Shown: positions 46,064 through 64,000, counted from the first letter of the stretch. The stretch is 64,000 nucleotides of DNA from an uncultured Gammaproteobacteria bacterium (GCA_964576435.1 CAZNUP010000002.1:42112-106111); one strand, 5' to 3'. Program-made: numbers and translations. Notes: generated by a model not told the origin, from the letters alone.

Positions 46064-46231
46064 CTATTTTTTATCTTCGTCGTCTTTAATTTGACCGCCT
46101 ATTCCTTCTTTGATGTTTTTAATAGCTTCGCCTAATCCTTTTGCTAGTTCAGGAAGTTTTTTGCCTCCAAAAAGAAGTAGCAAGACTACTGCGACTACGA
46201 TGATTTCAGTTGTTCCAATTTTGTTAAGCAT
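46064..46231 (-). CDS. tatA: Sec-independent translocase protein TatA (55 aa)
   Basis: Not in the ORF track. The sequence is MLNKIGTTEIIVVAVVLLLLFGGKKLPELAKGLGEAIKNIKEGIGG.... Confidence 0.65.
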   Translation of the reverse strand: MLNKIGTTEIIVVAVVLLLLFGGKKLPELAKGLGEAIKNIKEGIGGQIKDDEDKK

Positions 46232-46247
46232 TATTCTTCACCTTCCT

Positions 46248-46973
46248 TCACTTAGATTTAAAAACAAATCTATTTAATATTAAGGTCAATTCGAACAGGA
46301 ATACAAGTGGCAGAAGAAGAAGGGCGTCTGACAAAAGGTCGTTTAAGGGGAGAAGAACTACAAAAATTAAAGCAATAAAGTAAATGATTGCTCTTTGTTT
46401 TGATAGAAACTTGTGAGAAATTACCTTAAATCTGAGAAGGAGGGCAAGAATGATGGGGAACTGGAAGGCGACTCCTAAAAGAGTTGATGTTAGAAGCGTT
46501 TGAGAAAGAAATTGACTAATGTCCAAAAAATTTCCCACACCTAATCCGGTTGTTTGGACATAGAAAAGTTCAACTGTGTAGCGCATGATCAGGATTCCAT
46601 AGGTAAACCCAATCAAGAAAAGGACCAAGCTAACTGGTAGGAGAATTAAAAGTACCCTAAATTCTTTGGGTTTTAGAGCTGGCTTTAGAAAAGCTAGTAA
46701 CTGGAACATTAAAACTGGGAAAACTACCACAAATCCGACCAGAAGACTGGAATTAATTGCTAGGCCTATGAACTGAAATGGGGAAGTGAACACTAAGTTG
46801 ACGCCTTTAAACTCGAAAATACTTAGAACAAAGCTAACAATTTTTTCGTAATAGATAAAACCGATTATTCCTGCTATTAAAAACAGAGAAACTACAAAAA
46901 GAAGCCGCTTTCTAATCTCAATGACGAACGGAAGAAATCTACTGGTGTTGTCTAAAGCTAAATCTTCGAGCAT
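46248..46973 (-). CDS. tatC: Sec-independent translocase protein TatC
   Basis: A 241-aa protein with 6 TM segments in the TatC pattern (N-terminal ...RKRLLFVVSLFLIAGIIGF...). Confidence 0.75.
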   Translation of the reverse strand: MLEDLALDNTSRFLPFVIEIRKRLLFVVSLFLIAGIIGFIYYEKIVSFVLSIFEFKGVNLVFTSPFQFIGLAINSSLLVGFVVVFPVLMFQLLAFLKPALKPKEFRVLLILLPVSLVLFLIGFTYGILIMRYTVELFYVQTTGLGVGNFLDISQFLSQTLLTSTLLGVAFQFPIILALLLRFKVISHKFLSKQRAIIYFIALIFVVLLPLNDLLSDALLLLPLVFLFELTLILNRFVFKSK

Positions 46974-47122
46974 TATTTGTCGTCTTTAGCACCTTTTCTA
47001 AATTCTTTGATGGAATCTCCGAGTCCTTTAAAGAATTCGGGAATTTTCTTTGAACCAAAAAGAAGGATGACAACTGCGGCGATAATTATAATCTCTGTCA
47101 AACCAATATTGAGGCCAAACAT
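46973..47122 (-). CDS. tatA: Sec-independent translocase protein TatA (49 aa)
   Basis: Not in the ORF track. The sequence is [49 protein letters not shown]. Its stop overlaps the tatC start by 1 nt. Confidence 0.65.
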
Positions 47123-47344
47123 TTACGCCACCTCCTTCTCTTTTTCTGAAGTTGAGTCGGACGTAGTGGAATCATTTTCGTTTTCTAAGGCACTTGAAAA
47201 TTCTTTTTTGACCTTTTTAAGTTCTTTACCTGTTTCACCTAAACTTCTAGCCCATTCGGTCATTCTTTTCCCGCCAAAAATTACAAGAAGAACTACACCA
47301 ATGATTATTAATTCTGTTGTGCCAATATTATCTAAGAATGCCAT
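47123..47344 (-). CDS. TatA/TatB-family protein (73 aa, acidic C-terminal tail)
   Basis: MAFLDNIGTTELIIIGVVLLVIFGGKRMTEWARSLGETGKELKK... Its stop codon abuts the next tatA start. Confidence 0.6.
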   Translation of the reverse strand: MAFLDNIGTTELIIIGVVLLVIFGGKRMTEWARSLGETGKELKKVKKEFSSALENENDSTTSDSTSEKEKEVA

Positions 47345-47390: not shown

Positions 47391-47945
47391 TTAGTCAACC
47401 AGAGGGTCCATAGCAACTACATACCAAGCAATTCCGTCCCACATTTCTAGAGATTGGATTTCTGTATTAAAGCCAAGGGTGCCGACTTCTGGTTTTTTAG
47501 GTCTACCGTTTGTGTTCCAGGTGGCAATTCTTGGAAGACCAACCATCACTGACAATCCGCCACCAATTTCAATGTAGGTTGAGGAGTTTTTGGAAAGTTC
47601 TGGCTTGGCGTCGGGATTACTTGGCAGTCTGATATGACCTCCAAGAACAGTGCCTGATCCATCGTTTGCAAATGTTGCACCCAAAACACCCACACCAGTT
47701 GCTTGTTGGATGTCAGTTTCTGTAACTCCAACTCTTTTAAAGGAATCAGCACCATGAGCCGCAAGGGTTAGTTTAAATTTATTACTGCTTGTCCCATGAA
47801 TTAGGAGATTATTTGACCAAGTTCTGGCGTCAGTGCCATGGAAGATGATTGCCGACTTTGATTTAAAAGTGTCTGTCGCATGAAGAACGCCAGTGTCTCT
47901 GGATTTTATTGCGTCAGCGGTGTGAGTAATTAGAATGTTATCCAT
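47391..47945 (-). CDS. Hypothetical protein (184 aa) with N-terminal HxTD repeats and a C-terminal domain shared with the serine-rich repeat protein
   Basis: Repeats ITHTADA / VLHATDT / IFHGTDA / LIHGTSS / AAHGADS lie about 13 aa apart. The C-terminus RIATWNTNGRPKKPEVGTLGFNTEIQSLEMWDGIAWY aligns with [37 protein letters not shown] of the next gene. Confidence 0.55.
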   Translation of the reverse strand: MDNILITHTADAIKSRDTGVLHATDTFKSKSAIIFHGTDARTWSNNLLIHGTSSNKFKLTLAAHGADSFKRVGVTETDIQQATGVGVLGATFANDGSGTVLGGHIRLPSNPDAKPELSKNSSTYIEIGGGLSVMVGLPRIATWNTNGRPKKPEVGTLGFNTEIQSLEMWDGIAWYVVAMDPLVD

Positions 47946-47946
47946 A

Positions 47947-50900
47947 TTAATTTGAATTAGGATTTAAATTCATACGTAAAGTGTACCAGGATTGTCCACC
48001 CCAGAGTTCTAGATTTCCTGTATCTGTATTTAGACCTAGTGTTCCTGATTTTGGTTTCATTGGCCTCGTTGATGTTGTCCAGGTGGCCATTTTGGTTAGG
48101 CCAAGTAGGCCGGAACCTCTTGGGGTAACTTTACCCAGCATTGATGGTTGATACTTTGGAGCAGTTGGCCTATTAACCAACAGTTCTAACTCAGCTGGCG
48201 TTAAATTACCACCCCTTAAGAATGCATCAGTTGTGTTGGAGATTGTATATGAGGGGATTGACGATTCACTGGGACTGGCACTGCCAGTTGGGGAGAAGCT
48301 TAGTGAAATACTAATCGATTGGCTTATTGAACCTGTTGGACTTGCTGAAGCAGATTCAGATGATGATGGAGATGGGGAGAAGCTACTTGATGGTGAAGTA
48401 GATGAAGACTCCGAGAGTGATGAACTTTCAGAAATAGATGTTGAGAGTGAAGCTGATGGTGAAAGACTGGCACTTGGTGAGACTGAAGCAGATGTGCTAC
48501 TTGACTCTGAACCTGATAAAGATTCTGATGCACTTTCTGAAAGTGAGGACGATGGACTTTGGCTAGCACTTTGTGACAAAGAAGAACTTTGTGAGAGTGA
48601 TGAACTTTCAGAAAGAGAAGCGGATGGAGAAAGTGACGCCGAGGTACTTCCTGACGTGGAGCTACTTATAGAAGCTGAGGTGCTTTGGGAAACAGAAGAA
48701 GATTGTGAAATTGATGAGGACTCCGATAAACTACTTGACTGTGAGAGTGAAGATGATTCTGACAAACTAGCTGAAGGTGACAAGCTTGCACTTGGTGAAG
48801 TTGATGCAGAAATACTTGGAGAAATTGAAGAACTTATTGAAGCGGATGTACTTTCTGAAACAGAACTACTTGGAGAAAGTGAACTTGACTGGGAAATAGA
48901 AGCTGATGGTGATTGACTTGCTGATGGTGACAATGAGGATGATTCCGACAAACTTGCTGATGGGGAAATCGAGGCTGACGGAGAAAGAGACGACGATGTA
49001 CTTCTACTAGTTGAGGAACTTGTTGATGCAGAAATACTAGACGAGGTTGACGTGGATGGAGAAACTGATTGTGATTCTGACAAACTACTAGATGGTGAGA
49101 GTGATGAACTTGGTGACAAAGATGCTGATGGAGAAATAGAAGCACTGGGTGAGATTGATGCTGATGGAGATGTGGAAGCTGAAACACTAGCACTAGTTGA
49201 AGCTGAAACTGATGCGGAAGTACTTGCTGATGTTGAGGAACTTGGTGATAGGGATGCCGAACTACTTGCTGAAGCAGATCTTGATGCAGAGGATGAACTA
49301 CTTGCTGAAATTGAAGATGACGGGGAAAGACTTGCGCTTGGTGATATAGAAGATGATGGAGAAAGAGACGCTGATGGTGAAAGGGATGCTGATGGAGAAG
49401 TTGATGATGATGGTGAAAGAGATCTGGAAGCACTGGAACTTGTTGAAGATGAAACTGAAGCAGAAGTGCTTGCTGAAGTTGATGAGCTTGGCGAAATTGA
49501 GGCAGAAGGAGAAGTGGATGATGAAGGAGATAGAGATGACGAAGGTGAAAGGCTTGCACTTGGAGAAAGTGATGCTGACGGAGAAGTAGATGCCGATGGT
49601 GATAGGGAGCGCGATGCACTAGCTGATGTTGAAGCACTTTGTGAAGCCGATGTGCTTGCTGAAGTGGAACTACTTGGTGATTGCGATGCGGATGGTGAGA
49701 GTGATGCAGATGGAGAAGTTGATGATGATGGGGAAAGTGACGCAGATGGTGAGATTGATGCGCTTGGTGATGTTGATGAGCTTGGACTTTGAGATGCAGA
49801 CGCACTGGCACTAGTTGAGGCAGAGGTTGACGCTGAACTACTTGCTGAAACAGACGAACTTGGACTTTGAGAAGCAGATGGAGAAATGGATGATGAGGGT
49901 GAAACACTGGCGCTTGGTGAAAGCGATGCTGATGGTGAAACAGATGCCGATGGTGAGAGAGAGGAAGAAGCACTTGCGCTTGTTGAAGCTGAAACGGAGG
50001 CTGACGAACTTGCTGACACGGATGAACTTGGTGAGACTGAAGCTGACGGAGAAACAGATGATGAAGGTGATAATGACGAACTAGGTGATTGTGATGCTGA
50101 TGGGGAAAGGGATGCACTTGGTGACTGTGAGGCAGAAGGGGAAACTGATGCAGAGCTACTTGCTGATGTTGAAGATGAAACAGATGCAGAACTACTTGCG
50201 GAGGTTGATGATGAGGGTGAAATCGATGCCGATGGGGATAAACTAGAGCTTGGTGAAGTACTAGATGATGGACTTAATGAAGCTGATGGTGAAACTGACG
50301 CTGACGGGGAGACTGAGGCTGATGGTGAAAGAGAACTTGATGCACTAGCTGATGTCGACGCACTTGTTGATGCAGAACTACTGGCAGAAACGGAGGAACT
50401 TGGTGACTGAGAAGAAGAAGGTGAGACTGAAGCAGACGGAGATGTTGATGATGATGGGGAAAGTGATGCAGATGGTGAGATTGATGCACTTGGTGAAATT
50501 GAAGATGATGGCGAAAGGGAACTAGATGTACTGGCACTAGTTGAGGCAGAGGTTGACGCTGAACTACTTGCTGAAACAGACGAACTTGGACTTTGAGAAG
50601 CAGATGGAGAGGTGGAAGAACTTGGCGATGTTGAGGAGGATGGAGATAAACTTGCTGAAGGTGAAAGCGAAGCACTAGGAGAAGTGGATGCAGATGGTGA
50701 CAAAGATGATGATGCACTAGCTGATGTTGAAGCACTTACTGAAGCAGATGTACTTGCTGAAATAGAACTTGAGGGACTTAAACTTGCGGATGGTGAGACA
50801 CTCGAGCTTGGTGATAAAGATGCACTTGGTGACAAACTTGCTGATGGGGAGACACTTGAACTTGGAGATTGTGATGCTGATGCACTGGCACTAGTTGAAG

Positions 50901-51936
50901 CTGAAACTGAAGCTGAACTACTTGCTGAAACAGATGAACTTGGGCTTTGAGAAGCAGATGGGGAGATTGAAGCGGAAGGTGATGTTGAAGCAGATGGAGA
51001 AAGTGATGATGACGGTGACAAACTTGCAGATGGTGAAACAGAAGCTGAAGGTGAGAGTGAACTTGATGCACTGGCTGACATTGAGCTACTAGCTGATGCT
51101 GATGAACTTGCTGATGTTGAAGATGATGGACTTATACTCGCCGATGGTGATGTTGAAGCAGATGGAGAAAGACTTGATGATGGAGAAAGTGAAGCGGAAG
51201 GAGAAAGTGATGCGGAAGCTGATGCAGAAACTGATGATGATGCGGAAGCTGAACTACTTGCGGAGCTTGATGAACTTGGTGACTGCGATGCTGATGGAGA
51301 AGTAGATGACGAAGGTGAAGTTGACGCTGATGGTGAAAGACTGGAACTTGGTGATAACGATGCTGACGGTGAGACTGATGCTGATGGCGAAAGAGAACTT
51401 GATGCACTGGCACTAGTTGAAGCTGACACTGATGCGGAAGTACTTGCTGAAGTTGAAGATGAAGGGCTAGTACTTGCACTTGGTGAAAGACTGGAACTTG
51501 GCGATAGTGATGCTGAGGGTGATATTGATGCGCTTTGAGAAATAGAAGCGGATGGACTTTGAGAGGCTGACACACTTGAGGAAGTTGAAGCACTTACTGA
51601 AGCTGAGGCGCTTTGTGAGGCAGAGGCACTTGGAGAAAGTGATGCTGATGGACTAAGGGAAGCTGAAGTTGAAGCACTTGTTGATGCGGAGGTACTAGAA
51701 CTTGGACTTTGCGAGGCAGAGGTACTTGCTGATGTAGATGCTGATGCTGATTCTGATGGACTTAAGCTGGCACTGCTTGCTGAATAGACAGGATATGGTT
51801 GTCCTGGATAAGGTTGACCAAAATCTGTCGTACCAATACCAGAACCTCCTTGAGGAGATTGTTGTGGTGGGGTAGCATTTGGGTCGTCGTTACCTTGAGC
51901 GGGATATGGGTTACCAAAATAGTTAGAACCGAACAT
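47947..51936 (-). CDS. Serine-rich repeat protein (1329 aa), mucin/SRRP-like, with no signal peptide
   Basis: About 1,100 aa of SAS(T/V/L)S(A/P)S repeats (S[PATLVQ]S[AS]...). The N-terminus is [15 protein letters not shown]... with no hydrophobic segment. The unique C-terminal ~130 aa share a domain with the 47391-47945 protein. Confidence 0.7.
48120..51780 (-). repeat. Degenerate short-period coding repeat (6-12 nt periodicity) encoding the Ser-rich tract
   Basis: This low-complexity DNA produces spurious long ORFs in all other frames (D/E/G-rich on the plus strand, H/Q/L-rich on the minus strand). Confidence 0.8.
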
Positions 51937-52012
51937 AGGATTGAATTCCTTTTAAAAGGCATTGTATTGCCCATCAAATATTGTGCATCTTAAGAGGTGA
52001 AGTTACAAGAAG

Positions 52013-52570
52013 TTATTTTTTAATTAAGACTACTTGAATGTCCATTACAACATTTGTGTAATGCCTGAGTGCAAAGGCTTTGGCTTCTTCACTTCTCATT
52101 GCCCAATCTGGGGTGAAATCATATCCAAAAGAAAAATCAAAATCGCAATGTATTGGATAATGATCTAATTTGTTTTGTACTCTCCAATCTTTGTTGTAAT
52201 AGAGGAACGTGGCTTCGGAAATTACTCTTGTATGTGTGGGATCTTGCCAGGCGCGGACTGAGTTGTAATAGGGTGCACGAATTAAGGCTTTTGCCCCTGG
52301 CTTCATGATTCTATAAAGTTCCTCCATAAACTTTATGATGTCTTTTGTGTGCTCAATATAGTGACTGGAAAAAATTTCATCAACGCTATTGTCTGGAATT
52401 GGCCAGGGAAATTTCTCAAGGTCATAAACCATGTCAACTCCGTCTGACTTAGCAATATCGATGCCAAAGAAACCTGGGGCCTTGTTTTGCCCACAGCCAA
52501 TATCAAGCTTAAATGGTGAGGGAAAATTTAACGGGCTTTCTTTCTTTTTTGTTTTTATGTTTTTGGACAT
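52013..52570 (-). CDS. Class I SAM-dependent methyltransferase
   Basis: Motif I LDIGCGQNKAPG and motif II VDEIFSSHYIEH fit the Methyltransf_11/23-type fold. Confidence 0.65.
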   Translation of the reverse strand: MSKNIKTKKKESPLNFPSPFKLDIGCGQNKAPGFFGIDIAKSDGVDMVYDLEKFPWPIPDNSVDEIFSSHYIEHTKDIIKFMEELYRIMKPGAKALIRAPYYNSVRAWQDPTHTRVISEATFLYYNKDWRVQNKLDHYPIHCDFDFSFGYDFTPDWAMRSEEAKAFALRHYTNVVMDIQVVLIKK

Positions 52571-52582
52571 ATGCGAATTATA

Positions 52583-54028: not shown

Positions 54029-55171
54029 TCATGTGGAAACGAAAGTTACCGCTGGTAAAATGGTCGCTGTTGAGCCAGCACCACCTGTTGTTCCTAGTTC
54101 GCTTATGGTAATTGCAGTTGGAATGGCGGTTCCACCAAAACCTGCTCTTCCTGTGTTTGTTAGAAAGCCAACAATGTTTCTGCCCCACCAATTTGTGAAG
54201 GCAGAGTTGCTGGCACTCCAAGCCGTGGAGGCAACACCAATCGGCATCAACGAACCAGAGACCATATTTACCGGATTAATGGGTTGACCAATTATGCCTG
54301 CATTACTTAGGCCAAAGGTTGACCTGGTGTCGCCATTGCTTCTTAATTGCAGTAAGCCAATCCAATAAACACCACCTGTCAAGCTCGTCATATCGGCACC
54401 AAATTGTAAGCCAATAATTCTTGTTCCAGAGATGAATGATGACATAAGTCCTGTTGTTGTTAAGCCTGTGCTGCCATTAGTATTGAATGGTCCATACCCG
54501 TAGCCACTGGTCATGGTTGTCGTTGGAAAATTCCAAGTTACTGAGCGGCTATTTAAAGTTTGAGAAATGCCAAAAGAGTTACTGGTTATTAAACTTAGTG
54601 AGTTGTCATTTCTACTATAGAGTCCAAAATAGGAAAAGTGAGTGTGGCTAGCTGCTCCAATGGCGCTGGTTGCAAGGGACAATGAATTGCCAATTAGAAT
54701 TTGATTAAAGTTAAGGTTCGGGGGAATTGTTACTGGGAAAACAAAAAGCGAATTAGTTCCCGTGACTGAGGTGTAATTTGCAGCAATTGTTTGTAATCCA
54801 GTTTGGCCAGCTCCGGCAATGTGGACTGGAGCCCAGTAGGTGAGAGGGGCACTGGCATCGGTCATGGTTTTTTCGGTGATGGTGGCAGCGATTTGAAAGC
54901 CAACTTGAAAAGATTGGGAAGAAGAGCTTTCTTGGGTTCTTAAAATTGTAAAAGTGTCGACATCAATGTCTGTCACCCGGATAATTTCAGCATTGGTGGA
55001 AATTGGTTGGGTTCCCGATGGCCAGACAGTGGCATTAAAAGGAGGTGGGGGAAATTTTAATCCATCTCCAGCTTGCACTGTTAAAGTTGTTCCTGTCCCA
55101 GGATTTGTTGTGTCACCCTGGTTGGTTCCCCGAATTGTTGAATAGGCAAAGTTTCTATGTGCGTCAGCCAT
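54029..55171 (-). CDS. Tandem-paralogue hypothetical protein 3 of 3 (380 aa); candidate structural/glycan-acceptor protein
   Basis: Shares N-terminal ...FPPPPFNATVWPSGTQPISTNAEIIRVTD...DTFTILRTQE, a mid-region ...GYGYGPFNT... and C-terminal ATILPAVTFVST with the two upstream genes. It has no signal peptide or TM and is S/T/N/G-rich. Confidence 0.55.
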   Translation of the reverse strand: MADAHRNFAYSTIRGTNQGDTTNPGTGTTLTVQAGDGLKFPPPPFNATVWPSGTQPISTNAEIIRVTDIDVDTFTILRTQESSSSQSFQVGFQIAATITEKTMTDASAPLTYWAPVHIAGAGQTGLQTIAANYTSVTGTNSLFVFPVTIPPNLNFNQILIGNSLSLATSAIGAASHTHFSYFGLYSRNDNSLSLITSNSFGISQTLNSRSVTWNFPTTTMTSGYGYGPFNTNGSTGLTTTGLMSSFISGTRIIGLQFGADMTSLTGGVYWIGLLQLRSNGDTRSTFGLSNAGIIGQPINPVNMVSGSLMPIGVASTAWSASNSAFTNWWGRNIVGFLTNTGRAGFGGTAIPTAITISELGTTGGAGSTATILPAVTFVST

Positions 55172-55172
55172 C

Positions 55173-56291
55173 TTAAGTAGACATTACATTAGAATAAAAG
55201 GTAACAGTTGGCAAAATTGTGGCTGTTGAGTTGGCAGCTGAAGCACCAAGAGCTGATAAGTTAATGCTGTCTGGAACTGTGGTGCCACCAAAATTTCCAA
55301 GAGAAGTGGCAGTGACAAAAGCAACCATGTGTCGACCCCACCACTGGGTGCTGTTGCCAACATTTGTTCCGCCCCAAAGCGAAGCCACTGAACCTATGGG
55401 CAAAACACCGCTGACGCTGCCCGCAAGATGGGGAGGGTCAATTATTTGACCAATGACACCAGAGATAATTACTCCTGCTCCACTATTATTTGCTGTGCTT
55501 CTAAGTGACATGAGGCCAAGATAGTATATGCCGTTTGTTAGATGCATTTCACTGCCAAATTGCATCCCCACAGCTCTCGTTCCTGAGATGTAGTTAACAA
55601 TTTGAGCGGTGTTGCTCATTGCTAAAGTGTCATAACCATAACCGCTGGTGTTGGTTGTTGTTGGGAAACTCCAAGTTCGTGAGAGGCCGTTCATGCTTTC
55701 AGCGATTGAAAAAGACCCTGTGGCCATTAAAGACAATGCAGTGCTTGCGTTCATAGTATAGAGGCCAAAATAAGAATAGTATGAATTGCTGCCTTGGGCG
55801 TTACTTGTTGTATATGACATTGAGACTGGAAGAATGGCTTGGTTAAAATAGATATTGTTGTTGACAGTTACTGGAAAAACAAAAAGTGAGCCAGATGATG
55901 ATTGTCCTGAAGCAGAAGCTAAGGTTTGAAGTGAGGTAGCTGCAGCTGAAGAGTAAATAAATGGGGACCAAGTGGCAAATGAATTTTCAGCTTCGACTAA
56001 GGTTTGTGCTGTAATTGCTGCAGAAATTTGGTCACCAACAATAATGTTTTTGGCGTTAGTGTCCTCTTGCGCTCTTTCTACAGTAAATGTGTCAGTAGAT
56101 TTGGATACAACGAGCACTATTTCTGCATTTTCTGATGTGGGTTGTTCGCCTGTGGGCCAAATGGTAGCGTAAAAAGGAGTGTCTGGGAAAAGACTGCCAG
56201 TCCCTGCTGAAACTACTAATGAAGTGCCAGTATTGTTGGGTGTTGGGGCGGTGTCAATTGCTGATATGGCAAAATTATTGAAATTACTCAT
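55173..56291 (-). CDS. Tandem-paralogue hypothetical protein 2 of 3 (372 aa)
   Basis: ...SLFPDTPFYATIWPTGEQPTSENAEIVLVV...TFTVERAQE...; C-terminal TILPTVTFYSNVMST. Confidence 0.55.
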   Translation of the reverse strand: MSNFNNFAISAIDTAPTPNNTGTSLVVSAGTGSLFPDTPFYATIWPTGEQPTSENAEIVLVVSKSTDTFTVERAQEDTNAKNIIVGDQISAAITAQTLVEAENSFATWSPFIYSSAAATSLQTLASASGQSSSGSLFVFPVTVNNNIYFNQAILPVSMSYTTSNAQGSNSYYSYFGLYTMNASTALSLMATGSFSIAESMNGLSRTWSFPTTTNTSGYGYDTLAMSNTAQIVNYISGTRAVGMQFGSEMHLTNGIYYLGLMSLRSTANNSGAGVIISGVIGQIIDPPHLAGSVSGVLPIGSVASLWGGTNVGNSTQWWGRHMVAFVTATSLGNFGGTTVPDSINLSALGASAANSTATILPTVTFYSNVMST

Positions 56292-56295
56292 AATT

Positions 56296-57411
56296 TCATG
56301 TAGAAACCAAGCTTACTATTGGTAGGACCGTAGCAATAGTGTTTGCAGTTTGTAAGTTAGCAAGTTCGATTACGTTTGGTAACCTGGTGCCGCCAAATCC
56401 TTGCTGAGCGGTATTGGTGGCAAAGCCCATTATAAACCGACCATTCCAACCTGAGATTCGATTGTTGCTTTGAGCAAATTCTGCGGCTGCTTGACCTATT
56501 GGGTTCATGCCGCTAACTGAACCGGCCATGTTAATGGGATTTATTACTTGGCCGATAATTCCAGCATGGGAAAAACCTAGTGAAGAAACACTTCCGGCAG
56601 TACTTCTGTAGGTGAGAATTGCAAGCCAATAAATACCGCCTGTAATAGATAACTCAGTGTTAAATTGTAATTGCACTTTTCGGGCTCCTGATATAAGTGA
56701 AACCATTTGAGCTGTTGTGGAAATGTTACCAACTCCGGGAAAAGAAGTGCCATAAGCGTAGCCTGTTGTGGCGGTGCTTGTTGGATAGCTCCATGTTAGG
56801 CTGACACTGTTTAGAGTTTCAAGAATACTAAACGAATTAGAAGTGATGAGTTCCATAGTATTTGATGACATTGAATAGAGTCCAAAATTGGAAAAATAGG
56901 TGTTACTGACTCCGGCACTATTGGTGGTCATATACGACTGTGATTGGGCTATAACTATCTGATTAAAGCGCATGGGGAAGGGGAGAGTCATCGGGAAAAT
57001 AAAAATGGAACCGGTTCCTGTTGTAGAGGAATTTGCGGCAAGAGTCTGAACTCCGGTGCCTGCAGAGGCAGCGATTGTTGGAGCCCAGCTATTTATGTAG
57101 TAGTTTTCTAAATCAGTAAAGGTTTTGGCTGTTAAAGCGGCGGCAATTTGGTAACCTGATTGAAGGTTGATGCTTGCAGAGCCTTCCTGCTGACGGGTTA
57201 TTGTAAAGTTGTCTGATGCAATTCCTGTGACTCTAACTATTTCGGCATTAGTGCTAGTTGGTTGTGTGCCGCTTGGCCAAACAGTGGCATTGAAAGGCGG
57301 GGTTGGGAAAAGTGATCCCTGGCCAGTTTGAACATCTAAAGAAGTGCCACCAGTTCCTGGGGAATTGGCAAGAGTGGAATATGCGAAATTTGCGAATTGA
57401 TCGATTGCCAT
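56296..57411 (-). CDS. Tandem-paralogue hypothetical protein 1 of 3 (371 aa)
   Basis: ...SLFPTPPFNATVWPSGTQPTSTNAEIVRVTG...NFTITRQQE...; C-terminal TVLPIVSLVST. Confidence 0.55.
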   Translation of the reverse strand: MAIDQFANFAYSTLANSPGTGGTSLDVQTGQGSLFPTPPFNATVWPSGTQPTSTNAEIVRVTGIASDNFTITRQQEGSASINLQSGYQIAAALTAKTFTDLENYYINSWAPTIAASAGTGVQTLAANSSTTGTGSIFIFPMTLPFPMRFNQIVIAQSQSYMTTNSAGVSNTYFSNFGLYSMSSNTMELITSNSFSILETLNSVSLTWSYPTSTATTGYAYGTSFPGVGNISTTAQMVSLISGARKVQLQFNTELSITGGIYWLAILTYRSTAGSVSSLGFSHAGIIGQVINPINMAGSVSGMNPIGQAAAEFAQSNNRISGWNGRFIMGFATNTAQQGFGGTRLPNVIELANLQTANTIATVLPIVSLVST

Positions 57412-59173: not shown

Positions 59174-60088
59174 TTACCAAAGGAATGTCTTTTCAATTCC
59201 TTGATCTAGGGAAAGAGTTTTTCTCCCAGTTGCTTGGCGAAATTTTTGTGAATCTAGGACAGAATTTTTGAGCCTTAGATTGGATTCAATTGGGCCAAAA
59301 AACTGCTTTAGTGTTACAGGATTTACTTTGTTGGTTGGCACGTTTAGTTTTTTACAAACTTTTTGTGCTAGTTCGTAGGGACTTGCGATTTGACTTCCGG
59401 CAATATGATAAATTCCTTTTGCGCCGACATCCAAAAGTGCAATGGTTCCTTCTGTTAGATCATCAATATGGGTGAAAGCTATTTTTTGATCGGTGACAGC
59501 GTTTGTTTTTCCTTTATAGATAAGGTTGTTAACTATACCTTGAACCATGTTGCTGCCTAAACCTCCTTGGCCATAAGCAACAACGCCTCTAACTATTAGA
59601 AACCTCTTTAATCCTGAGTTTAAAACTAGGTCTTCAGCAATACTTTTTGTCTGGCCATACCAGTTTTTTGGTTCTTTGGTATCAGTTTCTTTGTAGCTAT
59701 CTTTTTCTCCTGAAAAAACGCATTCCGTTGAAAGTAGAACAAGTGTTTTACTATTTTCTTTGCAGTAGTTAATTATATTTTGGGTCCCTACAACATTTAC
59801 TTGCCAAGCCAGACTATCTTGACCTAAATTTTTTTCTAGTTCACATCTATCTATATGAGCATAGGCTGCAGCGTGAATTACTATGTTGGCGTCACTTTTA
59901 AGAGTCATAGGCTTAGTCAGGTCGCGCCTTACATATGTTGTTAATTTGGAAGAGTTTTTGGGTGGGGGAGTTTGGTGGTAAACGCCAAGGACTTTATTCT
60001 TGTCAAGATTATCTAAAAATCTTCTTCCTATAAAACCGGCAACGCCGGTTATTATGTAGCTATCTGATTTTTTGGTCTTTTTCTTCAT
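59174..60088 (-). CDS. NAD-dependent sugar epimerase/dehydratase (SDR family)
   Basis: Rossmann motif TGVAGFIG near the N-terminus; about 300 aa; it sits within the GT/MT cluster. Confidence 0.65.
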   Translation of the reverse strand: MKKKTKKSDSYIITGVAGFIGRRFLDNLDKNKVLGVYHQTPPPKNSSKLTTYVRRDLTKPMTLKSDANIVIHAAAYAHIDRCELEKNLGQDSLAWQVNVVGTQNIINYCKENSKTLVLLSTECVFSGEKDSYKETDTKEPKNWYGQTKSIAEDLVLNSGLKRFLIVRGVVAYGQGGLGSNMVQGIVNNLIYKGKTNAVTDQKIAFTHIDDLTEGTIALLDVGAKGIYHIAGSQIASPYELAQKVCKKLNVPTNKVNPVTLKQFFGPIESNLRLKNSVLDSQKFRQATGRKTLSLDQGIEKTFLW

Positions 60089-60930
60089 AGTGTTTCTTTA
60101 GGTAGGGGAGAGAATTTTTCTACTAACCAAGAAAAGTCGTGAACTCGTTCTTTCCATTTGTTATTTAGCCAGTAGTCAGCAGCAAACTCTCTGCCCTGTT
60201 TAATTCCCTCATTATATGCTCTTTGTTCCTGGTGGGTGAAGCCATAGCCTCTACTATCTCTATGCCAGTGGGCATACCAAGTTTTTTTGTTTACAACGAC
60301 CCTTCCTCCTGAAAGCCAAGCTTTATTGCCAATTTCTTGGGCCTCATTGGCAAAACTTCCGTAAGCTTGGTCATCCATGGGGCCAATTACATCCCAGAAG
60401 AAGTCTTTTTTTAAAAACCAACAGGAACCTTGAAAGGTCATGGTGTCATCGATTAGTATGTCTTTTCTTTCTTCTGCACGTTGTTTCCATTCGTTACCAT
60501 GAAGATAGCCGTCTTTGTTTTCTAGATACATGTAATCAATTGGTGGGCGTCCGTCTTTAATTATTTGCCAATTGTCGGCATCAAGCCTGTATCTTCTTGG
60601 AATTACAACCCAATTATCTGAAGAGTCGGCGATGAGTTTTTGGTCAAACCCTTCATCAAACATGCAATGTTCGTCTGTTTTCATTAGATAGGTTCCTTTA
60701 GCAATTGCCATGCCGGCATTTATGCCAGCGCGCATGCCTTTTCCCATCCCAGGTTTTCCTTGATGAATGACTTTTATTCTTGAATCCGTCCAGTTATATT
60801 CTTTGGGCCAATAGCCATCGAGGACGACAACCACTTCAACATTTCCTTTTGCTTTAGAAAGGATGTCGTCTATGGTTTTTTGCAAATAATCCTCAGTCCG
60901 ACTGGGGATAATAACAGAGAGATCTATCAT
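60085..60930 (-). CDS. GT-A glycosyltransferase with D-x-H and WGxxxxE motifs (GT27-like / GT2-like), paralogue of 57422 and 63293
   Basis: LSVIIPSRTE, YLMKTDEHCMFDEGFD, FANEAQEIGNKAWLSGGRVVVNKKTWYAHWHR. Confidence 0.55.
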   Translation of the reverse strand: MIDLSVIIPSRTEDYLQKTIDDILSKAKGNVEVVVVLDGYWPKEYNWTDSRIKVIHQGKPGMGKGMRAGINAGMAIAKGTYLMKTDEHCMFDEGFDQKLIADSSDNWVVIPRRYRLDADNWQIIKDGRPPIDYMYLENKDGYLHGNEWKQRAEERKDILIDDTMTFQGSCWFLKKDFFWDVIGPMDDQAYGSFANEAQEIGNKAWLSGGRVVVNKKTWYAHWHRDSRGYGFTHQEQRAYNEGIKQGREFAADYWLNNKWKERVHDFSWLVEKFSPLPKETL

Positions 60931-60956: not shown

Positions 60957-61481
60957 TTACGTGTTCCATTTTTTGACGAACCACCAGGTGACGTCTTCTT
61001 TTGGATGTGAGGTAACATTTAAACTTAGTGAATGGGATTTGACATAACCATCAACAGCTAAGATTACACTCGAATTATTAGCGGCATTATAGTTATTTCC
61101 AGCAATTATGCCACCCTTTTTTACTTTTTTTGACCAGGCTAGAAGATCTGTTATCACATAATCAAATTTTGGATTAGCATCAATATAGACGAAATCTAGT
61201 GCACCATCTGGAAAACTTCTTAGAGCGTCCATACTGGTTTTTCTGACAAGAGTCGCGTTATATGGGCGAAGTCTTTTTTTGGCAAAATCATATTTTCCAT
61301 ACATGACATGATTTTTTACATTGCCGTTTACCCAAGGATCAATGCCGTAGTATTTTAAACCAGGAATAGCTTTGCAAAGTGTTTCAGCAAAATCTCCTGC
61401 GTAGACACCAATTTCAGCACCAATTTTGAAGCCAAGTTTGTTGAAGTATTTAGCTAGATCGCCTCTGGATTTAACTTCCAT
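60957..61481 (-). CDS. Class I SAM-dependent O-methyltransferase (Methyltransf_24 / TylF-like)
   Basis: EIGVYAGDFAETL (motif I) and LDFVYIDANPKFDYVITDL...GGIIAGNNY. Confidence 0.55.
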   Translation of the reverse strand: MEVKSRGDLAKYFNKLGFKIGAEIGVYAGDFAETLCKAIPGLKYYGIDPWVNGNVKNHVMYGKYDFAKKRLRPYNATLVRKTSMDALRSFPDGALDFVYIDANPKFDYVITDLLAWSKKVKKGGIIAGNNYNAANNSSVILAVDGYVKSHSLSLNVTSHPKEDVTWWFVKKWNT

Positions 61482-61517
61482 ATGTTTCTTACATTTTATG
61501 TTATCACATTTATTTTT

Positions 61518-62165
61518 TTACGTGTTAACAAAAAACCAGGATCTAAATCTATCACGAAGCATTCCAGGTTTTATTTCTTTAGTGCCAACTATGAAGTAGG
61601 GGGTTATTCCATAAGCTCTTACATAAGCATCAAGAGCCCACCTAACATGATTTCTTTTCTTTTGTGGAAAAAAACAATAGTCGTGGCCTGCTACAATGCC
61701 ACCTGCTTTTACCTTTTTCTTCCAGGCGTGGATATCATCAGTTACATTTGGGAACTCGTGATTGCCGTCAATGTAGACAAAATCTAGTGATCCATCTTCA
61801 AAGTCTTTAACTGCTTCAAGAGATTGTTTTCTGATGATTTTAGAATTGTAGTTTGCTAGTCTTTTTGTTGCCTCGTCATAGATATCATCAAATTTTTTTT
61901 GCTCGGTATCGACTCCTGAAATTCCGGGTTCATAGGCAGAAGCTAGCCAAGGATCAATGGAGTAGAGGAGAAGACTCGGATTTTCTTTTAGAAGAACTTC
62001 CGAATAGATACCTCTTTCAACTCCAATTTCAGCACCGTTTGTAAATCCTAGTTCGGCAAAAAGTTTAGCTAAACTGTTTCTATCGATGTTTTCGATTTCA
62101 ATTGGTTGAGCGGATTTTAAATTCAGCTTGTATTTCTTGGAGATGAAATCCAATGTATTAGTCAT
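61518..62165 (-). CDS. Class I SAM-dependent O-methyltransferase (Methyltransf_24 / TylF-like), paralogue
   Basis: EIGVERGIYSEVL and LDFVYIDGNHEFPNVTDDIHAW...GGIVAGHDY. Confidence 0.55.
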   Translation of the reverse strand: MTNTLDFISKKYKLNLKSAQPIEIENIDRNSLAKLFAELGFTNGAEIGVERGIYSEVLLKENPSLLLYSIDPWLASAYEPGISGVDTEQKKFDDIYDEATKRLANYNSKIIRKQSLEAVKDFEDGSLDFVYIDGNHEFPNVTDDIHAWKKKVKAGGIVAGHDYCFFPQKKRNHVRWALDAYVRAYGITPYFIVGTKEIKPGMLRDRFRSWFFVNT

Positions 62166-62166
62166 T

Positions 62167-62808
62167 TTAAACCCAATCTTCTTTAGTTCTTATAAACATC
62201 CAGCCTGGATTATCTGGGCCAAAGGTGGGGTCTTTTATATCATTTGTTAGGACAAAAAGAGGTCTAACATTGTGGGCATAAACATATGCTTGAACGACGT
62301 CTTTTACATTGACAATATATTTTGTGTGGCTTCTTTTGTAGTCATGACCAAAGACAATTCCACCAGGACGGACTTTCTTGGCCCAATCGCAGATGTCGAT
62401 TGCGACGTTTTTAAAGTCATGAGCGGCATCAATGTAGACAAAATCTAGTGAGCCATCTTTGAAATCTTTAGCAGCGTCGCTGCTAAATTTCTTTACAATT
62501 TCGACGTTATAGGGAGCTAGTCGTTCTTTTGCCTGGTTAAAATAGTTGTTAATTCTATCTGTGTATTCGTTGTAGCCTTGATATGGTTCCCAAATATCGA
62601 CTGCAAATAATTTAACACCGGGGTTTTCTTTACAAATGGTTTCCGCGTGCCAACCTTGGGCGACACCGACTTCGGCACCTGTTTTGAATCCGAGTTCGCC
62701 AAGAGTTTTTGCCATTATGGTCCTATTTATTCCATGGATTTCTACTGGATTTTTAGGGTGAATCTCGAGATTAAATTTTTTAACTATGAAATCAAGTGTG
62801 TCTACCAT
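62167..62808 (-). CDS. Class I SAM-dependent O-methyltransferase (Methyltransf_24 / TylF-like), paralogue
   Basis: EVGVAQGWHAETI and LDFVYIDAAHDFKNVAIDICDW...GGIVFGHDY. Confidence 0.55.
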   Translation of the reverse strand: MVDTLDFIVKKFNLEIHPKNPVEIHGINRTIMAKTLGELGFKTGAEVGVAQGWHAETICKENPGVKLFAVDIWEPYQGYNEYTDRINNYFNQAKERLAPYNVEIVKKFSSDAAKDFKDGSLDFVYIDAAHDFKNVAIDICDWAKKVRPGGIVFGHDYKRSHTKYIVNVKDVVQAYVYAHNVRPLFVLTNDIKDPTFGPDNPGWMFIRTKEDWV

Positions 62809-63290
62809 AGATTTTCTAGATCAACTAAATTACTTAATACATCAGTTCTTCTGTTATCTTCTTTCCAAATTTTCCGGTATTTAAAGAGGGGATAGATCTC
62901 GTGGTAGCTATAAGTATGATAATAGGTTTTATTAGTGTCGTGAATCACAATATACTTTGCATAATTTGCTAAGCGTTTGATGTCGACTTTTCTTCTGAAA
63001 TCAGGGGAATGGTCAACAAGAACAACATCCCAGGGCCGTTCAATGTCCGCTTTATCCCAGTCATCAACATAATTTATTTCGTGATAGGGCCCTTTGTAAT
63101 AGTCAACCCAACCATTCCATTCAGCACTGTTGTCATAGGAAACTAATTTTCTTTTATTTAAGAGGCACCAATAGTGGAGGAAGGGAGTACTAAAAACTCC
63201 AGTGCCAAGTTCCAAAACGTCACCATTAGTTAGCGAAAGAGTTCTTATTAGGGCTGGCAGGTGGGTGCCATAATTAACGGAGACTCTCAT
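62802..63290 (-). CDS. Putative SAM-dependent methyltransferase-like protein
   Basis: VLELGTGVFSTPFL (a GxGxG-like motif I) and an acidic VVLVDHSPDF motif; the call is weak. Confidence 0.35.
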   Translation of the reverse strand: MRVSVNYGTHLPALIRTLSLTNGDVLELGTGVFSTPFLHYWCLLNKRKLVSYDNSAEWNGWVDYYKGPYHEINYVDDWDKADIERPWDVVLVDHSPDFRRKVDIKRLANYAKYIVIHDTNKTYYHTYSYHEIYPLFKYRKIWKEDNRRTDVLSNLVDLENLW

Positions 63291-63292
63291 GG

Positions 63293-64000
63293 TTATTTTT
63301 TGTAGCGGCCGTTATCAATTAGCCACTGTTTATAGATTTTTTTCCAATTATCTGGCCAAGTGGGCATGGGCATAAATCTGTCAATTAACCACGATAAGTC
63401 GTTTGACCTATCCTCCCAATGGTTGCCCATCCAAAATCTGGCACACCAGTTGTAGGACTTTTTAATTCGTTCATCGGTTAGTGGCCAACCTCTTGGTCTT
63501 TGACCGCCTTTATGCATGTGGGCATACCAAGTTTTTTTGTTGACCATAACTTTCCCTTTCCATGGGCCGAGCCAGGTTTTTAAACATAACTCGGGAGGTT
63601 CCATGGCATAATTGTCATAGCCTTCAGAACTCATGCCTTTTAGTGAATTCCAGAAATAGTCTTTTGTTACAAACCAACCGGAGCCGTGCATTTGAATGGT
63701 TTCATCAATTAAAAATTCTGGTTTCCCTTCCCTTTCTGCAGTTCGTTCTGGCCAATGGCCTCCTGCTTTAAAACGAAATCCGTGGCGATCTGTAAAGGGG
63801 CAAGAAAGATAGAAATAATCGTAGTGCCTCTCATCTTGCCATTTCCAATTTTCGGCATCTAAAACATAAAATCTTGGGGTGACTAACCAATTGTCTTCCA
63901 TATCTGCTTGAAGTATTTCATCAAAGCCTTCACCAAACATACAATGAGAGTCTGATTTGTAGAGGTATTTTCCGGTGGCCATTCCGGAAAGAAGATTGAC
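63293..64000 (-). CDS. GT-A glycosyltransferase with D-x-H motif (GT27-like / GT2-like), 5'-truncated by the window edge
   Basis: The frame stays open to nt 64000 (...VNLLSGMATGKYLYKSDSHCMFGEGFD). It has WLGPWKGKVMVNKKTWYAHMHK and is a paralogue of 57422 and 60085. Confidence 0.5.
   Translation of the reverse strand, partial: VNLLSGMATGKYLYKSDSHCMFGEGFDEILQADMEDNWLVTPRFYVLDAENWKWQDERHYDYFYLSCPFTDRHGFRFKAGGHWPERTAEREGKPEFLIDETIQMHGSGWFVTKDYFWNSLKGMSSEGYDNYAMEPPELCLKTWLGPWKGKVMVNKKTWYAHMHKGGQRPRGWPLTDERIKKSYNWCARFWMGNHWEDRSNDLSWLIDRFMPMPTWPDNWKKIYKQWLIDNGRYKK

Follow-up and report, generated by a model that had tools for sequence, protein, structure and literature searches.

A long serine-rich protein with phage fibre modules at both ends in a conserved chromosomal cluster of Patescibacteria

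The serine-rich protein encoded at 47947..51936 on the minus strand is, in our best estimate (a probability of roughly 0.55), a modular fibre of phage tail-fibre ancestry, probably O-glycosylated and trimeric, which has been kept on the chromosome and likely serves as a domesticated surface or attachment fibre. This reading is drawn from sequence comparison and gene order across the window (the whole stretch of 64,000 nucleotides that was analysed) and related loci. In Patescibacteria, synteny places the gene last among the structural genes of a conserved chromosomal cluster. By motif the protein belongs to a family with an extreme N-terminal NYFGxPY[PF]xQ signature, and by profile its C-terminus is a beta-module of about 45 residues, widespread among fibre-like proteins and in minor tail proteins of phages. 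The features concerned are as follows.

46064..47344, minus strand: tatA-tatA-tatC-tatA; context only, probably conserved backbone
47391..47945, minus strand: 184-aa gene, basic HxTDxxK repeats and, after them, the C-terminal module once more
47947..51936, minus strand: serine-rich gene, candidate fibre; ORF of 1329 aa including the stop, ATG start
47950..48183, minus strand: C-terminal module, residues 1252-1329 (core 1282-1321), a predicted small four-strand beta unit
48337..51774, minus strand: (Ser-X)573 spacer (residues 55-1200) with some 18 super-repeats, each about 62 aa long
51775..51936, minus strand: N-terminal 54 residues with two FGxPYPxQ copies, proposed docking peptide; conserved in patescibacterial orthologues and found at phage ORF N-termini
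52013..52570, minus strand: MT185, small SAM-dependent methyltransferase (Pfam Methyltransf_11/23; synteny; phage homologues)
52583..54015, minus strand: g238 (52583-53299) and g240 (53293-54015), paralogous small GT-A-like proteins with PHROG glycosyltransferase matches
54029..57411, minus strand: three tail-fibre-like paralogs of 380, 372 and 371 aa
57422..59167, minus strand: GT27-like glycosyltransferase, 581 aa (Pfam Glycos_transf_2; DAHC at residue 86; WGSQGIEVAVKTWLSGGRVLCNKKTWYAHMFR)
59174..60088, minus strand: RmlD-like NAD-dependent sugar reductase/epimerase (Pfam RmlD_sub_bind, 3e-44)
60085..60930, minus strand: second GT27-like GT-A (GT281), 281 aa, DEHC motif
60957..62808, minus strand: three Methyltransf_24 (TylF-type) methyltransferases (Pfam)
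62802..64000, minus strand: 162-aa conserved protein; third GT27-like gene, 3' part only

The serine-rich gene and its repeat

Serine accounts for 683 of the 1329 residues, and over residues 55-1200 Ser-X alternates without a break, giving 573 dipeptides or 1,146 residues. The most frequent unit of this spacer is the hexapeptide S[A/S]S[L/V/I/T/Q]SP; prolines are spaced by three X-positions 80 times, and proline-free SAS[T/V]SAS-type blocks break the hexapeptide series 17 times, producing the super-period of about 62 aa. An earlier note on this DNA had described a very long SAS[TV]SAS repeat resembling those of serine-rich repeat proteins (SRRPs). The length and the dipeptide chemistry hold, with 573 consecutive Ser-X pairs, but the pattern as written fits only the proline-free blocks, the hexapeptide being commoner. 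We propose that the spacer forms an extended stalk and is O-glycosylated.

The gene is real and not an artefact. Its DNA is weakly repetitive (TRF arrays with 67-87% matches), all six Ser codons are in use, and independent assemblies from two sequencing runs agree with the window; it is on these grounds that we regard the gene as confirmed. No exact repeat of 100 nt or longer was found in the gene's DNA. The agreement is 100% at 47947-49833 and 50985-52764, which covers both gene ends and 2.8 kb of the 4 kb. The earlier note had allowed for a collapsed low-complexity ORF, and one may extend the suspicion to a chimeric assembly or a non-coding tract open by chance. In favour of such an artefact, the middle 1.15 kb of the repeat (49834-50984) is supported by the window's own assembly alone, short-read contigs break within the Ser-X repeat, the exact protein is absent from 15 billion catalogued proteins, and gene callers run on fragments of the gene picked antisense ORFs. 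Set against this are the degeneracy of the repeats, the agreement of the assemblies, a conserved module at each end of the 1329-codon ORF, and orthologues whose lengths run from 1445 to beyond 1960 aa, so that we give the artefact a close to negligible chance.

Homologues in related genomes, to which the earlier note had looked, do exist. Orthologues with the same end modules and the same gene order occur at at least seven other loci, namely L011 (Daviesbacteria), L015, L018, L019, L022, L023 and L024 (Levyibacteriota). Their Ser-X runs span 1106-1602 residues, and some carry globular inserts for which Pfam returned no match.

End modules, cluster and phage relatives

The motif NYFGxPYPxQ occurs twice at the N-terminus of the serine-rich protein, and the pattern G-x-N-[YF]-F-G-x-x-Y-[PF]-[GA]-Q, by which family members are recognised within their first ~15 residues, corresponds to residues 3-14. 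The NYFG DNA pattern is unique in the window, where 0 matches are expected by chance. In IMG/VR the pattern was matched 12 times, 11 of these at an ORF N-terminus, and nine of the 12 loci carry a gene like the tail-fibre-like paralogs (par-like) 0-4 kb upstream. NYFG-headed phage genes lie just downstream of a tail-fibre gene with a GP4-type virion-anchor domain, and the bodies of their products are highly variable, comprising Ser/Thr tracts (75-96% S+T in L193, L197 and L198), SDSITLTE repeats and globular domains. One such contig, L046/L199, is a confirmed phage with genes for portal (3.5e-120), scaffold, major head protein (2e-78) and head-closure protein. Its head genes are followed by a par-like gene of 791 aa, g240, MT185, an NYFG gene of 226 aa and a tailspike, and the order in the window (three par genes, g240/g238, MT185, serine-rich gene) is the same. 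In a further phage contig, L044, the fibre gene is preceded by genes for sugar modification. We found neither the NYFG motif nor its partner characterised in a cultured phage; the NYFG-headed fibre proteins appear to be a family not described so far, whose presence in virions is predicted.

The consensus of the C-terminal module is W-x-T-x-x-R-P...G-x-x-G-[FY]-N-T...L-E-x-W-x-G-x-x-W. Its profile matches the C-terminus of the serine-rich protein, the 184-aa neighbour, the orthologues and 614 representative proteins, while Pfam offers only a sub-threshold match to DUF7360. We propose that the module drives oligomerisation, specifically trimerisation. In L011 and L018 the serine-rich gene is followed by orthologues of the 184-aa gene which are 64-67 aa long and consist of the module only.

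The serine-rich gene ends a syntenic cluster of about 20 kb in at least eight patescibacterial loci. The cluster runs from sugar methyltransferases through GT27-like glycosyltransferases, three tail-fibre-like paralogs, small GT-A and methyltransferase to the serine-rich gene and the small C-module protein; this order, including that of the three paralog groups, holds between lineages of 50-70% protein identity. The N-terminal ~100 residues of the tail-fibre-like paralogs are a phage tail-fibre/tailspike virion-anchor domain, which reaches 79% identity between phage L111 and a Levyibacteriota locus. An identity of this order fits ongoing use in phage particles as well as domestication.

In every case MT185 immediately precedes the serine-rich gene. 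The small GT-A proteins, whose family profile has a single PDB relative (STIV A197 glycosyltransferase, E=0.007), form a pair with MT185 in phages as well as in at least 445 metagenome stretches, although mostly without any Ser-rich ORF. In one MAG (L010/L012/L013) the cluster is present while MT185 and the serine-rich gene are missing. Because of these two observations, the target of glycosylation could instead be the tail-fibre-like paralogs or another protein.

The larger glycosyltransferases resemble GT27 enzymes, which are characterised by a DxH motif and a Gal/GalNAc-T motif with a conserved His (PMC4202792). Four paralogs carry DAHC, DEHC or DSHC at residues 83-90, and the enzymes also show a Gal/GalNAc-T motif including that His; the third gene runs past the window end and has a full length of 308 aa. 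All 14 PDB matches of the 581-aa protein are polypeptide GalNAc-transferases or their relatives (best 1.8e-6), and its segment WGSQGIEVAVKTWLSGGRVLCNKKTWYAHMFR aligns to GalNAc-T7. Pfam assigns only Glycos_transf_2 to these proteins and detects no C-terminal ricin-type lectin domain. To our knowledge, GT27-like enzymes are otherwise a eukaryotic hallmark. The smaller GT281 also resembles GalT1 of the Fap1 pathway in S. parasanguinis. The earlier note had recognised the GT27-like enzymes, and motifs and PDB matches bear this out; they are, however, not immediate neighbours, since the methyltransferase, the two small GT-A-like genes and the three tail-fibre-like paralogs lie directly upstream of the serine-rich gene.

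Export and competing explanations

As the earlier note had stated, signal peptide and anchor are missing. Residues 1-54 contain no K or R, the highest 19-residue hydropathy is 0.59, with no hydrophobic segment, and no LPXTG was found, the C-terminus being a predicted soluble beta-module. An alternative start exposing a Tat (RR) or other export signal, which the note had thought conceivable, does not exist. The protein lacks a twin-arginine motif (S/T-R-R-x-F-L-K) with h-region, and its N-terminus cannot be longer, since an in-frame TAA stands 18 nt 5' of the ATG with no alternative start in between; AAGGA lies 9-14 nt upstream of this ATG. The RR pattern used matched none of the window ORFs of at least 80 aa. 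Likewise, no structural protein of the cluster has a signal peptide or anchor, and a location on the cell surface would therefore need another route of export or release. SecA2/SecY2, asp1-3 and gtfA/gtfB were not detected by Pfam among window ORFs of at least 100 aa (the 6464-aa ORF excepted), in line with the note's own remark on SecA2/SecY2. A sortase gene is present at 37869-38516.

The locus is flanked by a ribosomal-protein operon (rplKAJL) and by tat/mreB. A tatA-tatA-tatC-tatA cluster does follow on the same strand, as the earlier note had observed, yet not immediately, for the 184-aa gene intervenes. Packing is operon-like: the start of that gene overlaps the stop of the serine-rich gene, and there is no terminator-like site before tatA. 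In L018, too, serine-rich gene, small C-module gene, tatA and tatC are neighbours on a single strand; in L015 a tatA stands beside the locus. In L206-L208, the backbone from tat to PrsW/HTH_17/WecG is kept without the serine-rich locus, and unrelated genes, among them ones for other leaderless large proteins, stand directly upstream of tatA. The tat genes are thus probably a conserved backbone beside a variable slot.

These observations bear on the two hypotheses of the earlier note, an SRRP-like glycoprotein exported by Tat and a glycosylated virion-type protein, of which the latter has proved the closer. According to the former, an O-glycosylated adhesin would acquire its fold and its modifications in the cytoplasm and then leave through the neighbouring Tat system in place of accessory Sec. 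The Ser-X dipeptide repeat, the GT27-like enzymes nearby with the GalT1-like GT281, the gene adjacency recurring in L018 and L015, the lack of a terminator-like site before tatA and the leaderless proteins of L206-L208 all speak for it. We nevertheless consider it very improbable, as residues 1-54 offer no signal of the required kind and cannot be extended, phage fibre modules occupy both termini, and the variable slot would explain the adjacency by position; moreover, signal peptide, AST domain, binding region, LPXTG, accessory Sec and GtfA/B are all missing in the window. Identity as an SRRP was accordingly rejected, defining features other than the Ser-X repeat being absent, as was identity as a Tat substrate.

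The virion-type hypothesis may be framed as a tail-fibre and glycosylation cassette whose products equip the particles of a phage, one that infects a patescibacterium or is resident elsewhere in it, be it a prophage, a satellite or an element dependent on a helper. In that case the serine-rich protein would be a glycosylated whisker or distal fibre, assembled in the cytoplasm and released by lysis, for which an export signal is unneeded; the missing signal peptides are thereby explained naturally. Each of the three structural modules is of phage type, a confirmed phage tail module shows the identical gene order, the anchor domain is closely shared with phage L111, and L044 pairs sugar-modifying and fibre genes. 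Virion glycosylation is moreover known from mycobacteriophages, where virion proteins of Che8, Rita and others are O-glycosylated by co-encoded glycosyltransferases, as related in a passage of PMC11256854 citing Freeman et al. 2023. Phage modules and phage-type gene order therefore stand, but what surrounds them is a chromosomal cluster: Pfam and PHROG searches of the window and of 10 kb past its right end returned no portal, capsid, terminase, integrase or lysis genes, the neighbours are the ribosomal-protein operon and tat/mreB, and synteny with conserved paralog order at 50-70% identity is the pattern expected of a vertically kept cellular trait. We judge use in such particles unlikely. A further explanation has the cell keeping phage-compatible fibre proteins, with their conserved virion-anchor domain and NYFG docking motif, so that virions formed during an infection would be loaded with useless giant glyco-fibres and lose infectivity, again within the cytoplasm and without need of export. 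The high identity at which phage-docking modules persist in a locus that is cellular and not a prophage would suit such a decoy, as would the missing export signals. However, we found no precedent and no evidence tying the locus to defence islands, and a large, costly glycan cluster with three conserved paralogs better suits a constitutive structure; the decoy seems highly improbable to us.

We thus favour a cellular role over an active prophage, on the strength of the missing capsid, packaging and lysis genes and of synteny across divergent lineages. In the domesticated fibre that we prefer, the N-terminal motif would dock the serine-rich protein onto the tail-fibre-like paralogs and so form a branched fibre, as gene adjacency suggests, with the (Ser-X)573 tract as its extended stalk. 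The GT27-like enzymes may densely O-glycosylate this stalk in the cytoplasm, in a way resembling the action of polypeptide GalNAc-transferases on mucins, and the sugars would be methylated. Chains would associate through the C-terminal module, trimers being the probable form, and the free-standing copy of the module in the 184-aa protein may take part. Most likely, the fibre would serve the cell as a surface or attachment structure that leaves by a non-classical release route.

Comparison with known systems and meaning for Patescibacteria

SRRPs are defined by a long signal peptide, an AST domain, an SRR1-BR-SRR2 arrangement, LPXTG, SecA2/SecY2/Asp and GtfA/GtfB (PMC6973325). With GspB, Fap1, SraP and the SRRPs of lactobacilli the window protein shares a very long Ser-X repeat with a probable role as glycosylated stalk, and cytoplasmic glycosyltransferases nearby, one of them GalT1-like. 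It differs in having a single Ser-X tract, no long signal peptide, AST domain or LPXTG, GT27-like GT-A enzymes instead of GtfA/GtfB, no SecA2/SecY2/Asp in the window, and a patescibacterial host. GP4-type phage fibres (Ralstonia phage GP4, PDB 8jov; BcepIL02-like phages) are alike in combining a conserved attachment end with a variable body, and in phages the N-motif family lies directly downstream of such genes, in the order of L046/L199; here, by contrast, the fibre genes are chromosomal, triplicated and devoid of other virion genes, and the body is an extreme (Ser-X)573.

Virus-encoded enzymes make the methylated sugars present in the glycans of chlorovirus capsids and of mimivirus fibrils. 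Virion O-glycosylation likewise joins virus-type structural proteins with co-encoded glycosyltransferases, but what it modifies are fibril proteins or the short tails, rich in Ser/Thr, of subunits of the capsid or tail tube, whereas the candidate acceptor here is a dedicated 1,146-residue Ser-X protein encoded with GT27-like enzymes in a cellular genome. Eukaryotic mucin-type O-glycosylation is similar in that GT-A enzymes with DxH(C) and Gal/GalNAc-T motifs are found with a Ser/Pro-rich tandem-repeat polypeptide; the enzymes here, for which sugar transfer is predicted, lack the ricin-type lectin domain and would act in the cytoplasm and not in the Golgi. A precedent of another kind is provided by PblA and PblB of Streptococcus mitis phage SM1, leaderless phage fibres which serve the bacterial surface after lysin-mediated release. 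PblB is an adhesin (PMC4508584). Both belong to a complete prophage and depend on holin and lysin, genes which do not flank the present locus.

Several consequences extend beyond this locus. Two widespread and uncharacterised fibre modules, the NYFG head and the W..RP..GFNT..LExWxG unit, have been defined, as has a very common phage pair of GT-A and methyltransferase, and bacterial and phage relatives of the mucin-initiating enzymes are indicated. Since gene callers miss or invert the serine-rich gene, such proteins are under-counted.

The prevailing view of Patescibacteria is that they live fixed to other cells, although hardly any of their attachment structures is known. A fuller scenario, which we regard as improbable, is that Microgenomates-group Patescibacteria domesticated a tail-fibre module together with mucin-type O-glycosylation and build leaderless, micrometre-scale glyco-fibres for host-cell attachment, with a (Ser-X)500-800 stalk on a paralog heterotrimer and a non-classical route functionally tied to the adjacent multi-tatA Tat system. 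The cluster in itself offers a concrete attachment candidate, combining proteins of phage receptor-binding type, an extreme mucin-like protein and GT27-like enzymes. If this holds true, it would be a clear case of a minimal genome retaining phage structural genes.

The serine-rich gene and its surroundings

The serine-rich gene is a single open reading frame of 1,329 codons with an ATG start (47947-51936, reverse strand), as the earlier note had observed of a long serine-rich repeat gene. Ser-X alternation continues without a break over residues 55-1200, amounting to 573 successive dipeptides in which X is A, P, S, T, L, V, Q or I, and serine accounts for 683 of the 1,329 residues. The hexapeptide S[A/S]S[L/V/I/T/Q]SP is the commonest unit; proline-free blocks of the SAS[T/V]SAS type interrupt its runs 17 times, and the tract comprises about 18 super-repeats of about 62 residues. 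The ATG is preceded at 9-14 nt by an AAGGA box. As an in-frame TAA is found 18 nt before the ATG and no start codon intervenes, the N-terminus cannot be extended, and the search of alternative starts for a Tat (RR) or other export signal, proposed in the earlier note, yielded none. The reported lack of a signal peptide and anchor was confirmed: Lys and Arg are absent from residues 1-54, the peak hydropathy of any 19-residue stretch is 0.59, and the protein contains neither LPXTG nor a twin-arginine pattern. A word-indexed homologue search with its unique C-terminal 117 aa gave no matches.

Low-complexity genes of this kind could reflect a collapsed assembly artefact, as had been cautioned. Both the degeneracy of the repeat DNA and its recovery in independent assemblies speak against this. 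Tandem Repeats Finder detected only short arrays with 67-87% matches, no exact DNA repeat reaches 100 nt, and all six Ser codons occur, at frequencies similar to those in other genes. Two further sequencing runs yielded short-read contigs that match the window with 100% identity at 47947-49833 and 50985-52764, while 49834-50984 is supported by the window's own assembly alone. This is a genuine, unusual gene. On short-read fragments of the repeat, gene callers chose antisense ORFs (calls of 180-250 aa at L001 42-1601, L002 2-1372 and L204 1227-1778), and an exact-sequence look-up of the 1,329-residue product in a collection of 15 billion proteins found nothing. Gene callers thus seem to mis-call the gene routinely, a sign that its family may be systematically mis-annotated.

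Genes flanking the serine-rich gene, all on its strand, from 3' to 5'
3' of the 184-aa gene (-): tatA, tatA, tatC, tatA
47391-47945 (-): 184-aa gene, directly 3' of the serine-rich gene, its start overlapping the serine-rich stop
47947-51936 (-): serine-rich gene
Nearest upstream gene (-): MT185, a small SAM methyltransferase
Next upstream (-): g238 and g240, paralogous, about 240 aa each
Upstream of g238/g240 (-): three paralogous proteins of 371-380 aa
Upstream of the three paralogs (-): 581-aa GT2-type glycosyltransferase (GT)
Upstream of the 581-aa GT (-): RmlD-like enzyme
Upstream of the RmlD-like gene (-): 281-aa GT
Upstream of the 281-aa GT (-): three Methyltransf_24 genes and further genes

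The window also encodes an ATP synthase subunit, LeuRS, ArgRS, ComEA/ComEC, MreB, NDK, an M16 peptidase and a sortase. Such cellular gene content, together with named homologues from Daviesbacteria, Levybacteria, Dojkabacteria, Blackburnbacteria and the 'Microgenomates group', identifies the source as a Patescibacterium (CPR). Overlapping contigs extend the sequence beyond the right edge to two more GTs, an IS200-type transposase and the rplKAJL/nusG operon. Neither the locus nor these contigs contain capsid, portal, terminase, integrase or lysis genes, and we rejected a prophage reading for want of these hallmarks. An Rfam scan of 42-64 kb gave no matches. Elsewhere, an ORF of 6,464 aa (2369-21763, forward strand) is rich in G/S/T/A/N, with an HTH-like segment at the N-terminus and a single transmembrane helix; it is typical of CPR giant surface proteins and may be the real sortase/surface player of the region.

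The cluster in other Patescibacteria and its tat neighbours

A scan with the 371-380-aa paralog family, using one genome per species, returned 20 loci. Wherever sequence continues beyond g240, gene order is constant with one exception: GT27-like GTs and methyltransferases, three paralogs, g240 (sometimes with g238), MT185, and a giant Ser-rich ORF. The exception is one MAG (L010/L012/L013) with the cluster but neither MT185 nor the Ser-rich ORF.

Orthologues of the serine-rich protein
L011 (Daviesbacteria): 1,731 aa
L018: 1,866 aa
L019: 1,962 aa
L015: >1,444 aa, truncated, with globular inserts and a Ser-X run of 374 residues
L022/L023 and L024: Levyibacteriota

Homologues in related genomes, which the earlier note had advised seeking, therefore exist and share both gene order and an N-terminal motif, M-x-G-x-N-Y-F-G-x-x-Y-P-x-Q (the NYFG head), usually in two copies; Ser-X runs span 1,106-1,602 residues in the near-complete L011, L018 and L019. 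A C-terminal beta unit of about 45 residues, the C-module, is common to L011 and L018, while the end of L019 differs. In L011 and L018 the next gene encodes a C-module alone (64-67 aa), followed in L018 by tatA and tatC. Some orthologues carry beta-rich globular inserts between N-motif and Ser tracts (L015 15665-19996; L018 12660-18257; L011 15636-20828; phage relative L041 15901-17382), some duplicated and some LamG-like by eye, which may be the fibres' binding domains. Pfam gave nothing above threshold for these inserts, the serine-rich termini or the 184-aa protein.

The tat genes do lie downstream on the same strand, as first noted, with the 184-aa gene in between. This adjacency recurs in L018, tatA also occurs beside the L015 locus, and a promoter/terminator scan found no terminator-like sites separating the serine-rich gene from the 184-aa gene or the latter from tatA. 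The proposed export of an SRRP-like (serine-rich repeat adhesin) protein through Tat is not supported, since the serine-rich protein has no Tat-signal features and the tat backbone is retained with other upstream genes. Three relatives found via TatC keep the order tatA-tatC-tatA-PrsW ... HTH_17 ... WecG, with the slot 5' of tatA occupied by a leaderless 670-aa protein, a beta-helix protein of about 440 aa and giants that are not Ser-rich. The simplest reading is a variable island beside a conserved tat backbone, a functional link being the less likely alternative.

In these Microgenomates the 670-aa and beta-helix proteins form a conserved pair in place of the serine-rich locus (L206 6246-9586; L207 5956-9360; L208 4111-9053). 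As tblastn against cultured phages gave no matches to either, we do not claim a phage origin for this pair. Four tatA paralogs surround the single tatC in what is a very small genome (44378-44524, forward; 46064-46231, 46973-47122 and 47123-47344, reverse), and L206-L208 show the same multi-tatA arrangement with a PrsW-like protease. A 142-aa ORF between WecG and the tat cluster has an HTH_17 (excisionase/MerR-like) gene on either side (43234-44265, reverse strand), an arrangement kept in L206 which may represent a toxin-antitoxin or regulatory pair.

Sugar-modifying enzymes and phage-type modules

The PDB matches of the 581-aa GT are almost all polypeptide GalNAc-transferases (best E = 1.8e-6), and the alignment spans WGSQGIEVAVKTWLSGGRVLCNKKTWYAHMFR, the Gal/GalNAc-T motif. 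D-x-H-C occurs at residues 83-90 in four GT paralogs of the locus; in GT27 enzymes the metal ligands are a DxH motif and a later His (PMC4202792). The earlier 'GT27-like' label is thus upheld, and by their motifs these four GT-A enzymes are bacterial relatives of GT27 polypeptide GalNAc-transferases. Pfam detected no ricin-type lectin domain in the GT27-like GTs, and a resemblance to GalT1 of the Fap1 pathway was also seen for the 281-aa GT. DxHC and KKTWYAH[MW][FH][RK] motifs lie at 57422-59167, 60085-60930 and 63293-64000 (reverse strand) and at L003 8198-9998, and shorter GT27-like copies are present in all related loci.

The sole PDB relative of the g240 family profile is the STIV A197 glycosyltransferase, whose DED aligns with the EED of g240, which we predict to be a minimal GT-A. 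The g240-MT185 pair (52013-54015, reverse strand; L046 12365-13678; L112-L191) is present in at least 445 metagenome stretches, in most of which no Ser-rich ORF lies nearby, and also in a confirmed phage tail module. For this reason, and because MT185 and the Ser-rich ORF are both absent from the cluster of one MAG, the glycosylation target may be something other than the serine-rich protein.

The three 371-380-aa paralogs are not GTs. Their domain, a GP4-type virion anchor, carries the annotation 'tail fiber' in 62 cultured phages, was recovered in 140 IMG/VR stretches and forms a structural gene of its own in a complete 39-kb phage; an AF2 model of the 371-aa paralog is confident in the N-domain only (overall pLDDT 58).

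The C-module (consensus ATW.T..RP.KP..GTLG.NT....LE.W.G..WY) of the serine-rich protein shares 49% identity with the C-terminal end of its 184-aa neighbour, the copies lying at 47974-48093 and 47424-47540 (reverse strand; others in P0241-P0390, representative proteins). The general form of this unit, W.T..RP..P..G..G[FY]NT....LE.W.G..W, has no Pfam model, and PDB sequence searches with its profile and with the 184-aa protein returned nothing meaningful. The C-module matches PHROG families of unknown function near their N-termini, Streptomyces phage 'minor tail proteins' (50% identity over 46 residues), SPbeta YomG and cyanophage ORFs. An exhaustive profile search located it in 614 representative proteins, in 1-14 copies each, either as a stand-alone protein of 48-100 aa, as in many of them, or as the very last part of fibre-like proteins that have LamG/CBM-like heads and repeats of SDSITLTES or LLDGKxxIKD. 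A two-sequence AF2 model yields a four-strand unit (core pLDDT 84-90) and hints at a trimerisation role. Residues 1-110 of the 184-aa protein consist of basic HxTDxxK repeats of about 13 residues, and a 326-aa relative (P0246) has about 14 of these before its C-module; such repeats might bind cell wall or nucleic acid.

When the NYFG head was searched as a degenerate DNA pattern in 2.9 million viral contigs, 12 matches were obtained, 11 of them at an ORF N-terminus. The bodies behind it vary, from tracts of 75-96% Ser+Thr (420 to >1,249 aa) to ITDSI-type repeats and globular domains, and in 9 of the 12 loci a GP4-type anchor-domain gene lies 0-4 kb upstream on the same strand. IMGVR_UViG_3300037264_002957 reads portal (3.5e-120), scaffold, major head protein (2e-78), head closure, a 791-aa protein resembling the tail-fibre-like paralogs, g240, MT185, NYFG protein and tailspike; here the gene order of the window recurs within a genuine phage tail module. 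Both termini of the serine-rich protein are modules of phage fibres. Literature searches found no prior description of this locus, CPR tail-fibre genes, GT27 in phages, the NYFG head or the C-module.

A proposed domesticated fibre and its phage rival

The family to which the serine-rich gene belongs has phage-type modules at both the N- and the C-terminus. The gene is the last structural one in a conserved patescibacterial cluster that unites tail-fibre-like proteins with GT27-like and other sugar-modifying enzymes. The suggestion of a virion-type structural glycoprotein is partly supported, as regards ancestry and architecture. The main rival is that products of the cluster are mounted on phage particles, which would account for the lack of export signals and for the anchor domain being so highly conserved (as much as 79% identity with a phage protein). 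A domesticated cellular fibre nevertheless seems to us likelier than a part of an active prophage, since the cluster is syntenic among lineages at 50-70% identity, retains three orthologous paralog groups in order and contains no virion-core genes.

In the model inferred for the protein, the NYFG head would dock on the tail-fibre-like paralogs, the (Ser-X)573 tract would form a stalk, densely O-glycosylated in the cytoplasm with methylated sugars, and the C-module would oligomerise the chains, a task in which the 184-aa protein may share. The stalk would work much as those of SRRPs or mucins, although of the features defining SRRPs (PMC6973325) the protein has the repeat and lacks every other. 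The locus also resembles phage virion glycosylation, as touched on in PMC11256854 (citing Freeman et al. 2023), and the protein resembles PblB, a phage fibre serving bacteria (PMC4508584); unlike either, the locus is chromosomal, its product is leaderless and of extreme length, and its enzymes are GT27-like. Phage fibre modules would here be combined with mucin-like O-glycosylation.
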